Below, one piece after another: positions 48,038-48,355 of a stretch of 52,545 nt of DNA. Source of the DNA: a virus (lineage: Duplodnaviria > Caudoviricetes); IMG/VR virus record IMGVR_UViG_3300036715_003055, positions 1 to 52,545 of that record. One strand, written 5' to 3'. The notes under the pieces were generated by a model. The model saw only the letters and a program-made list of their open reading frames with translations. It had not been told where the DNA came from and did not search any database. The position numbers and the translations under genes were made by a program. Positions within the stretch are counted from its first letter, which is position 1; every line of letters begins with the position of its first letter.

Positions 48038-48111
48038 AAGAAACTTTACCTCGAAGTTTCCCCATCAAGGATGAACATGACGTTCTAAGCTGCGATGGCT
48101 TTAGTAGAGGA
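48038..48111 (+). ncRNA. Pseudoknot RNA motif A, copy 1
   Basis: GAAACTT/AAGTTTC, CCATC/GATGG, CTTTAGTA; loop CCTC pairs with GAGG. Confidence 0.6.
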
Positions 48112-48224
48112 CGGATAGCTAAGTAAACCAGCTAATCCTAAATGTTAAGAGCAACCTTATCATTTAGGAGAAGGGTGATTAGCGAACCTACAAGTTATCG
48201 AGTTGCTTAGATAACTTGTGTGGG

Positions 48225-48282
48225 GGCTCTGTGGCTTATGGAAGCCTGAAAGGAGTGGGTTCGAGCCCCACCTGAGCAACAA
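48225..48282 (+). ncRNA. tRNA-like RNA lacking an anticodon arm
   Basis: Acceptor GGCTCTG/CTGAGCA (5 of 7 pairs), U8, D-arm GCTT-ATGG-AAGC, short linker, T-arm GTGGG-TTCGAGC-CCCAC, 3' ACAA. Confidence 0.6.
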
Positions 48283-48299
48283 ATATCGGCAGCTGCCTT

Positions 48300-48355
48300 A
48301 AGAAACTTAACCCCTGAAGTTTCATCCACCAGCGAGGGTGGCTTTAGTAGGGGGA
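48300..48355 (+). ncRNA. Pseudoknot RNA motif A, copy 2
   Basis: GAAACTT/AAGTTTC, CCACC/GGTGG, CTTTAGTA; loop CCCC pairs with GGGG. Confidence 0.6.

Follow-up and report, generated by a model that had tools for sequence, protein, structure and literature searches.

What kind of RNA fills the gap between two small genes of an uncultivated phage, and why does it occur there twice? The window considered here, that is, the whole stretch of DNA analysed, is the 52,545-bp IMG/VR virus record IMGVR_UViG_3300036715_003055 (Duplodnaviria; Caudoviricetes; CheckV completeness 26%). An initial annotation, made from its letters alone, had pointed out an unrecognised pseudoknot motif in two copies with compensatory changes, bracketing a tRNA mimic, and had suggested a self-cleaving ribozyme, a nuclease-blocking element, an aptamer or an antitoxin mimic. 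Both copies and the tRNA mimic lie within a 362-nt gap that runs from a 77-aa to a 66-aa open reading frame (ORF), both on the plus strand (Table 1). Judged by comparative sequence analysis, the element is an H-type pseudoknot: the loop of a 5′ hairpin (stem 1, core GAAAC/GUUUC) pairs with the four bases of the 3′ end, and a variable stem-2 hairpin is inserted, together with the strand C(U/C)UUnGUA, between stem 1 and the 3′ tail. As far as Rfam 15 and the literature matches go, this is a previously undescribed family of structured RNA, one of whose seven members is doubtful.

The seven copies come from three contigs: two from the window, one from a 1,428-nt metagenome contig (L047) and four from a 154,304-bp phage contig that is 75% complete (G001; copies a, b and c are clear, d is weak). 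The loop-tail helix is CCUC/GAGG in window copy 1, CCCC/GGGG in window copy 2 and L047, GUCC/GGAC in G001 a and b, and ACCC/GGGU in G001 c. It is thus fully Watson-Crick (4/4) in six of the seven copies, with four distinct Watson-Crick sequence pairs; in G001 d (CCUC/GGGG) there are three Watson-Crick pairs and one G.U. Loops and tails combined across non-cognate copies mostly mispair. Stem 2 has a different sequence in each copy (5-7 bp, loops of 4-27 nt), all of them pairing and all abutting the C(U/C)UUnGUA strand, which is nearly constant. Within stem 1, the distal part covaries (UU/AA vs. UC/GA) and the proximal AAAC/GUUU core is nearly constant. Because the loop-tail helix and stem 2 covary across the seven copies, the element reads as a genuine conserved pseudoknot of sense-strand RNA, a module of approximately 55-75 nt whose helices are established by this covariation. 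G.U pairs, which would be C.A on the other strand, make up 6 of the 109 pairs across copies and therefore fit an RNA of the sense strand; all seven copies share the orientation of the flanking genes. The pseudoknot of the initial annotation is thereby borne out by direct reading and by its relatives. Both covariations named there are present (U-A to C-G in stem 2 and again in the loop-tail helix), and the stem-2 inserts are, as stated, 27 and 6 nt long.

The pair table across contigs was parsed copy by copy by script, because MAFFT and covariance-model alignments of the seven copies put stem 2 out of register. The tool-based count of pairs was confined to the gap-free alignment of G001 a-c, in which two of four loop-tail pairs and three of six stem-2 pairs are changed on both sides and both helices are 100% paired. 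The observed covariation values are reached by at most 5 of 500 shuffles, and sliding the 3′ partners by 1-3 columns lowers pairing from 86% to 18-41%; coming from three related sequences, this count is supportive rather than proof. Within the window, the stem-1 pattern occurs twice against 0.01 expected, and none of 100 shuffles reaches two. The octamer CTTTAGTA by itself is not significant (6 in the window vs. 3.15 expected; 10 of 100 shuffles reach 6), and the motif surrounds only two of the six. Folded singly by minimum free energy, neither copy stands out (z -0.9 and -1.3), as expected of a program that cannot form pseudoknots. Support for the fold in the window is covariation, not energy.

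The contig L047 was retrieved by a strict-motif pattern scan of metagenome contigs, which gave 49 loci; a filter requiring 5 bp or more in stem 2 and 4 bp or more in the loop-tail helix, with G.U allowed, left two, L047 and L031. The L047 copy has the same stem 1, the loop AAACCCCG, the same AGCGAG loop, the same CUUUAGUA strand and the tail GGGG, and in its stem 2 (ACACC/GGUGU) the outer pair is A-U where window copy 2 has C-G. Of the two, L047 alone has loop, flanks and genomic context in common with the window; L031 is A/U-rich. G001 was found by a pattern for the unit of a second structured RNA, the type-2 domain described below; this pattern gave one true locus in viral contigs (L054, an end of G001) and five loci in genome contigs with no similar flanks. 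The strict motif gave two loci in viral contigs, both chance matches within coding sequence, and a pattern of the 3′ half gave none in either viral or genome contigs.

A covariance model (R1) built from window copy 2 and L047, limited to stems 1 and 2 and with no pseudoknot encoded, recovers window copy 1 (36.4 bits, E 3.3e-08) and scores the three diverged G001 copies at 19.2, 18.9 and 14.3 bits. Since the model that found them did not encode the pseudoknot, the compensated loop and tail changes of G001 are unbiased evidence. The homologue search that the initial annotation had named as a test has turned out in favour of the motif, with five further copies in two other contigs. Four weak matches of a further model (R2) in G001 (L062, L063, L065 and L066; 11.6-12.6 bits) were discarded, as they hold flanking boxes only and no stems. 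R2 did not find the motif in 151 + 151 bacterial genomes of two arbitrarily chosen phyla plus two start genomes, the single match (25.2 bits, E 0.04) reading as A/T-rich coding sequence; this negative is no evidence of absence. A descriptor scan of the window, L047 and G001 gave 18 matches, seven of which are the family members and the other 11 A/U-rich; the descriptor alone is not specific, because a non-member at window 13971 scores as high as true copies.

Comparison with Rfam, another check proposed at the outset, likewise left the motif without a known family. At gathering scores Rfam 15 has no match in the whole window nor in L068 and the G001 stretch L061, and at E <= 10 none overlaps the copies on the sense strand in window 47900-48500, L047 or L054 6150-7450. 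The sole overlaps are weak and on the opposite strand (Gut-1, 14.5 bits; suhB, 14.6 bits), far below threshold. A blastn search ('distant') against 50,697 phage records gave no match for window 47900-48500, L054 1150-2450 or L054 5700-8014. Protein searches of the viral contigs gave no relative for the 77-aa, 66-aa, 145-aa, 431-aa PhoH-PIN and 452-aa queries, nor did metagenome contigs for the 145-aa window protein. The motif is not described in the titles and abstracts of the literature matches listed; the 8,495 candidate RNAs catalogued from IMG/VR in PMC10690425 may contain it.

Table 1. Features of the pseudoknot locus and its surroundings (window positions unless a contig is named)
Feature	Position	Strand	Details
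77-aa ORF	47798-48031	+	directly 5′ of copy 1
Pseudoknot module, copy 1 (W_PK1)	48038-48110	+	direct reading and covariance model
Copy 1, stem 1	48040-48046 / 48054-48060		GAAACUU/AAGUUUC; loop 1 UACCUCG
Copy 1, stem 2	48062-48066 / 48094-48098		CCAUC/GAUGG; 27-nt loop
Copy 1, conserved strand	48099-48106		CUUUAGUA
Copy 1, loop-tail helix	48107-48110 / 48049-48052		tail GAGG / loop CCUC
Nested hairpin domain	48118-48183	+	GCUAA/UUAGC, ACC/GGU, UCCUAAAUG/CAUUUAGGA; folding of 48112-48225, z -5.0
Hairpin	48189-48220	+	CAAGUUAUC/GAUAACUUG; folding; kept in L054 with one A-U to G.U
tRNA-like element TLS1	48225-48279	+	acceptor stem, D arm, T arm; no anticodon arm
Pseudoknot module, copy 2 (W_PK2)	48300-48354	+	direct reading and covariance model
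Copy 2, stem 1	48302-48308 / 48317-48323		GAAACUU/AAGUUUC; loop 1 AACCCCUG
Copy 2, stem 2	48326-48330 / 48337-48341		CCACC/GGUGG; 6-nt loop
Copy 2, conserved strand	48342-48349		CUUUAGUA
Copy 2, loop-tail helix	48350-48353 / 48311-48314		tail GGGG / loop CCCC
A-rich leader	48355-48393	+	AAGGAG, then start codon of 66-aa ORF; box AAAAATTAATTGACAA
66-aa ORF	48394-48594	+	downstream of copy 2; PHROG 21321, function unknown
Type-2 structured RNA domain	48600-48920	+	three units, U-run end; 3′ of 66-aa ORF
Type-2 domain homologue	L047 1008-1175		two units
Type-2 domain homologue	L054 1392-1205	-	two units
PolyA_pol + HD protein	9515-10984		CCA-adding enzyme family
Metallo-beta-lactamase-fold protein	11377-12150		

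The most constant part of the element may be held together in a further way. Six of the seven copies have an identical GAAA/UUUC stem and CUUU strand while the other helices vary freely, and the CUUU strand could pack against the A-U-rich stretch of stem 1 to form a U.A-U triple helix, which would give a very compact knot. The strands follow one another in the order A-tract, loop, U-tract, hairpin, U-tract; the second U-tract would therefore run parallel to the A-tract, as it does in a U.A-U triplex of the major groove. In G001 d, one A-U pair is changed to G-C and the matching U of the strand to C (CCUU; the register is our reading), a change that would yield an isomorphic C.G-C triple. A triple of the ENE type is compatible with the sequence of all seven copies, and the triple-consistent change is seen in this one weak copy.

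All seven copies are intergenic. Four of them (window copy 2 and G001 a-c) end 33-39 nt before an AUG, with a free AAGGAG in between. The other three precede non-coding structured RNA: window copy 1 is followed by hairpins and the tRNA mimic, L047 by a type-2 domain and G001 d by a mini tRNA-like element. Because three of seven copies stand before such RNA, the role of the element is not purely translational. G001 a, b and c occupy the leaders of three consecutive small genes in the order hairpin, pseudoknot, short A-rich spacer, GCCC-loop-GGGC hairpin, AAGGAG and AUG. The first leader hairpin has the 8-nt loop AAGUAGGC, or AAUAGGCU in copy b, and in b and c only it is preceded on the 5′ side by a mini tRNA-like element. 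The gene after G001 c is homologous to the window 77-aa ORF, which matches its C-terminal part (53% identity, E 2e-24), so the two regions are syntenic. The ends of the G001 contig (L061 1-190 and L054 7825-8014) repeat each other over approximately 190 nt with at least one mismatch. Because of this repeat, G001 is probably complete with terminal repeats, or circularly permuted, in which case all of its pseudoknot and tRNA-like elements would form one cluster of approximately 9 kb.

The bracketing of a tRNA mimic, which the initial annotation had treated as part of the motif, does not hold as a property of the element. L047 has a pseudoknot with no mimic, G001/L054 has a mimic in the same slot with no pseudoknot beside it, and three G001 copies sit in the 5′ leaders of ordinary small genes. 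The same annotation was right about the hairpins between the copies: the segment 48112-48225 folds with z = -5.0, and none of 200 shuffles folds as well. The nested hairpin domain is kept in L054 with one compensatory pair (C-G to U-A). As to the mimic itself, the acceptor, D and T arms stand, the 17-nt anticodon arm being replaced by 4 nt, and its status as a tRNA does not: it scores 22.8 bits against RF00005, below the gathering score of 29, and ARAGORN calls no gene there. The homologue of the mimic in L054 keeps the helices with two compensatory pairs and has ACCA after it; the Rfam family that it matches best is mascRNA-menRNA (19.3 bits vs. a gathering score of 42.5). The only PreQ1 match (RF00522, 13.3 bits) lies elsewhere in L054. 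A transfer-messenger RNA (tmRNA) was considered and rejected. ARAGORN finds none in the window or G001, the only Rfam tmRNA match is a 17-nt T-loop fragment (12.8 bits), the only AUG frame stops after eight codons in L054 with no common start or resume point, and the acceptor stem lacks G3.U70.

A T-arm scan of the G001 minus strand shows four mini tRNA-like elements of approximately 47 nt between genes, at about 153197, 152651, 2124 and 800. They have a 7-bp acceptor (UUCCCGC/GYGGGAA type), one arm and a GCCCG-UUCRAGU-CGGGC T arm, and lie approximately 65 nt 5′ of G001 b and c and approximately 40 nt 3′ of G001 d. They are candidate punctuation sites for RNase P and RNase Z. Beyond G001 d, its mini tRNA-like element and a 3-codon mini-ORF, approximately 480 nt with no long ORF (L061 minus strand, 2040-1560) may be another large structured RNA; it has no Rfam match at gathering scores. 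A frame ending ..YRVA-stop at window 48142-48210 is also kept in L054; two of the differences between the phages are synonymous, and the stop codon changes from UAG to UAA. Sequencing run X2 contains a 552-nt contig identical over window 47836-48387, and run X7 contains contigs over 48017-48107 with seven differing letters and over 48094-48286 with three; the X7 variant 48199 C>A is synonymous in the ..YRVA-stop frame. In run X4 no contig spans 47776-48348, and X4 and X5 contain other parts only; neither observation counts as evidence. This frame is probably a coincidence within a highly conserved RNA, with no common start.

The second structured RNA, the type-2 domain, lies directly 3′ of the pseudoknot in L047 and 3′ of the tRNA mimic in L054. 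Each unit combines a hairpin of GGGAGG type with a CACUAUA/UAUAGUG helix, into which a variable insert is placed, and with a CAUG...CAUG hairpin. The domain is closed by a covarying outer helix (GCUUGCU/AGCAAGC, AGCUU/AAGCU, CCAACUU/AAGUUGG) and ends in a U-run; 6 of its 55 predicted pairs are changed on both sides, and Rfam has no match for it. A gene for a Csx3-family protein is present at L047 607-897 and L054 1596-1889 (minus strand). The L047 protein matches Pfam Cas_csx3 (E 9.6e-10) and is 91% identical to that of L054; Csx3 was not seen among the window ORFs scanned. G+C-rich repeats of GCTCCGC type lie 5′ of the gene within an A+T-rich region (L054 minus strand, 2300-2130; L047, 190-350). 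The Csx3 family are ring nucleases of cyclic tetra-adenylate (PMC7371418), and the phage gene is probably directed against type III CRISPR. The slot between Csx3 and the type-2 domain holds the pseudoknot in L047, and hairpins and a tRNA mimic with no pseudoknot in L054. Present or absent in the same slot of close relatives, the element is portable. The type-2 domain looks pseudo-symmetric, at the 3′ end of a viral Csx3 transcript, and it is conceivable that it binds a symmetric ligand or a dimeric protein. Because it is close to the viral Csx3 gene, this RNA-rich region is a candidate anti-defence locus.

What, then, would such an element do? Its intergenic sense-strand positions, the mixed RNA downstream and the variability of the slot speak against a purely translational operator or a classical metabolite regulon, and favour a portable module acting at the RNA level. 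In the best reading, the element is cis-acting and reused in the small-gene, RNA-rich region of one uncultivated jumbo-phage lineage. Its context suggests, tentatively and with a probability of about 0.35, an intercistronic module of RNA stability or processing that works alongside tRNA-like punctuation elements; of the functions listed in the initial annotation, nuclease blocking or stability ranks first and the antitoxin mimic last. Such a module would act post-transcriptionally on the RNA 3′ of it, be this an mRNA leader or a non-coding module. The neighbouring tRNA-like elements would be cut by host RNase P and RNase Z in the manner of tRNA punctuation, and the pseudoknot would then block decay that depends on the 5′ end or proceeds 5′ to 3′, while also insulating the downstream ribosome-binding site from upstream structure. 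This scheme of cutting and protection is proposed because tRNA-like elements accompany the copies in phages that have an enzyme of the CCA-adding type and no detected tRNA genes (ARAGORN calls no tRNA or tmRNA gene in the 52.5-kb window and no tRNA gene in the 154-kb G001). The two window proteins of the PolyA_pol + HD and metallo-beta-lactamase-fold types (Table 1) may have the tRNA-like elements as substrates.

Several points weigh against this reading. That RNase P and RNase Z would cut the tRNA-like elements is an assumption based solely on the shape of these elements, and in G001 b and c the first structure after the cut would be the separate hairpin, not the knot. The 8-9 conserved unpaired bases exceed what a roadblock would appear to need and fit a pocket for a ligand or protein equally well. 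The family is seen in only three related contigs, so that many seemingly independent changes may amount to few events. G001 d is the weakest member (R1, 14.4 bits, E 0.21; missed by R2 at E <= 5). Finally, in classical H-type geometry the connecting strand occupies the minor groove of stem 1, whereas U.A-U triples need the major one. The case for the triple helix is weak, because it draws on one copy only, the weakest member, and on a strand classically assigned to the minor groove.

The conserved single-stranded bases, carried on a rigid scaffold and repeated before several genes of one region, would also suit a protein operator or decoy, either bound by a regulator of early leaders or soaking up a host defence nuclease as the 'antitoxin mimic' of the initial annotation. 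The viral Csx3, an anti-defence gene, lies within the region, and in G001 a and c the pseudoknot is flanked on both sides by AAAAAUAGC. However, A-rich flanks are unremarkable at roughly 30% GC, and the element lies approximately 20 nt 5′ of the Shine-Dalgarno sequence rather than covering it. Scans that were not exhaustive showed no RNA-binding Pfam domain in the window neighbours and nine L054 proteins, and no ToxN-like Pfam domain in 39 proteins. The copies are 190-500 nt apart rather than tandem, and longer than known type III antitoxin units; they do not form the tandem repeats of a short pseudoknot that mark a ToxI-like system, and a cognate ToxN nuclease was not found among those 39 proteins. 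This explanation is unlikely, with slightly better odds than the other rivals.

Rather unlikely, too, is a riboswitch aptamer, in which a small ligand held in a triplex or pseudoknot pocket would alter expression of the RNA downstream. A size of 55-75 nt, an H-type knot with an embedded variable hairpin and conserved junction bases would suit an aptamer; the architecture resembles that of the preQ1-II and SAM-II classes, and four of seven copies lie in 5′ leaders at a near-constant distance of 33-39 nt from the AUG. Yet no expression platform is visible, as the tail (GAGG, GGGG, GGAC or GGGU) is not a Shine-Dalgarno sequence, the true one is free approximately 20 nt further 3′ and no terminator follows. 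Three of the seven copies precede non-coding modules. A metabolite regulon would not be expected to place several copies in one genome before small genes that are unrelated and have no Pfam family, as is the case here. No Rfam riboswitch family matches the copy regions at E <= 10.

The copies mark the 5′ edge of coding and non-coding units alike, beside tRNA-like elements that look processed, and this location could further be explained by a new small self-cleaving ribozyme that would cut the polycistronic transcript where modules meet. The order element, small hairpin and Shine-Dalgarno sequence in G001 a-c recalls engineered ribozyme insulators. Multiple intergenic copies in phages fit as well, since pistol, hatchet and theta ribozymes were discovered in such settings (PMC4604425, PMC10879173). 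Against it, no Rfam ribozyme family matches at E <= 10, the topology differs from that of pistol, the nearest class, and no candidate cleavage dinucleotide is conserved, the 5′ flank varying between AAG, ACG and AUG before AAAC. Most new conserved motifs are not ribozymes, and the low prior adds to making this explanation improbable. The topologies of HDV-like, twister and hammerhead ribozymes were discarded, as no equivalent of P3/L3 or of the core motifs is apparent by eye and there is no Rfam match.

The least probable alternative is a role in processive antitermination, comparable to that of the put sites in phage HK022, in which the nascent two-hairpin RNA would modify RNA polymerase for terminator read-through. 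In its favour are two adjacent hairpins 0-2 nt apart, several copies per phage with compensatory changes, the position of the element 5′ of the U-run ending the type-2 domain in the window and L047, and an enrichment of terminator-like sites in window 45600-50500 (15 vs. 2.3 expected). Against it, L054 has the type-2 domain and U-run with no element upstream, the genes of the successive copies G001 a, b and c show no evident terminator between them, and a pseudoknot with a conserved single strand is not known as a feature of put RNA.

The module of RNA stability or processing can also be extended into a bolder proposal, which is quite unlikely. This lineage of DNA phages, with no tRNA genes in the window or G001 though the window encodes its own enzyme of the CCA-adding type, would organise its early transcripts by mitochondria-style tRNA punctuation, and the knot would belong to a new class of catalytic or nuclease-proof RNA, either a self-cleaving ribozyme or the first exonuclease-resistant triple-helix knot of a phage. 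In this role it would define and protect the released 5′ ends, including those of the non-coding RNAs beside the viral anti-CRISPR ring nuclease gene.

The window (GC approximately 28%, climbing to approximately 36% over its last 5 kb) encodes a terminase large subunit, a family-A DNA polymerase, a ribonucleotide reductase, a sigma-70-type factor and the PhoH-PIN protein (431 aa). A 376-aa tandem-PAS-domain protein (27854-28984, minus strand) is unusual for a phage. The box AAAAATTAATTGACAA of the A-rich leader recurs just 5′ of ribosome-binding sites (45757-45772 and 48360-48375) and also at 48923-48938, and G001 has a leader, UUGACAACAA, that resembles it. The box may be a promoter element of the -35/UP type or a common leader sequence.

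If fold and role are as proposed, the element would found a new structured-RNA family and show leaders and intergenic regions of large phages to be assembled from exchangeable RNA pieces, among them a pseudoknot, mini tRNA mimics and a terminal domain of pseudo-symmetric form. Signals of tRNA-like processing would then be linked to mRNA organisation in a DNA virus. At approximately 55 nt the element is a small candidate for nuclease resistance, ligand binding or self-cleavage, and synthetic biology could make use of a natural insulator or stabiliser of the 5′ end that is so compact.

How does the element compare with known systems? Phages already place repeated structures between small early genes, modular and shuffled among related genomes. 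The RNase III sites of T7 and the promoter-stem-loop cassettes of T4 are simple hairpins, whereas the element is a pseudoknot combined with tRNA-like elements. With preQ1-II and SAM-II aptamers it shares the H-type pseudoknot in a 5′ leader, with a hairpin loop pairing to a 3′ tail, and with the preQ1-II architecture in particular the topology of an extra hairpin embedded in the connecting strand. A further putative likeness is a U-rich strand forming triples with an A-U helix; in the aptamers, the ribosome-binding site lies within the knot. In contrast to preQ1-II, the 3′ pseudoknot strand of the element is not a Shine-Dalgarno sequence, AAGGAG lying approximately 20 nt downstream, and no preQ1-II model matches; unlike both classes, several copies per genome precede unrelated genes and non-coding RNA. 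For the proposed mechanism, the nearest analogy would be the exonuclease-resistant RNAs of plant viruses. These RNAs and those of flaviviruses are known only from eukaryotic RNA viruses; they resemble the element in their compact pseudoknot of hairpin loop and 3′ tail, conserved unpaired bases and position at the 5′ edge of an RNA. There is no relation of sequence or family, and the resistance of the element is putative.

Among ribozymes, pistol also has a short 5′ hairpin whose loop pairs with a downstream strand, a variable hairpin and a common occurrence in phage DNA. In pistol (PMC4604425), the strand pairing with the P1 loop is found between the 5′ halves of P2 and P3, and P2 encloses P3. 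The loop partner of the element instead lies 3′ of the whole second hairpin; with this different strand order, no enclosing helix and no Rfam pistol match, the element does not have the pistol topology. A closer counterpart to the locus as a whole is the ENE/MALAT1-type triple helix, which stands next to the tRNA-like mascRNA (PMC8457004, PMC4836648). In both cases an A-tract could be gripped by two U-rich strands with a hairpin between them (here GAAA with GUUUC and CUUU), a tRNA-like element with no anticodon arm belongs to the same transcript, and stabilisation of the RNA would be coupled to RNase P processing. The A-tract of the element, unlike that of ENE/MALAT1, precedes the U-strands on the 5′ side and has a length of only 3-4 nt, the putative triple helix is combined with a pseudoknot, and the element is not directly 5′ of the tRNA-like 5′ end and belongs to a bacteriophage rather than to the eukaryotic nucleus. 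ENE/MALAT1 with mascRNA would nevertheless be the nearest functional analogy for the whole locus.

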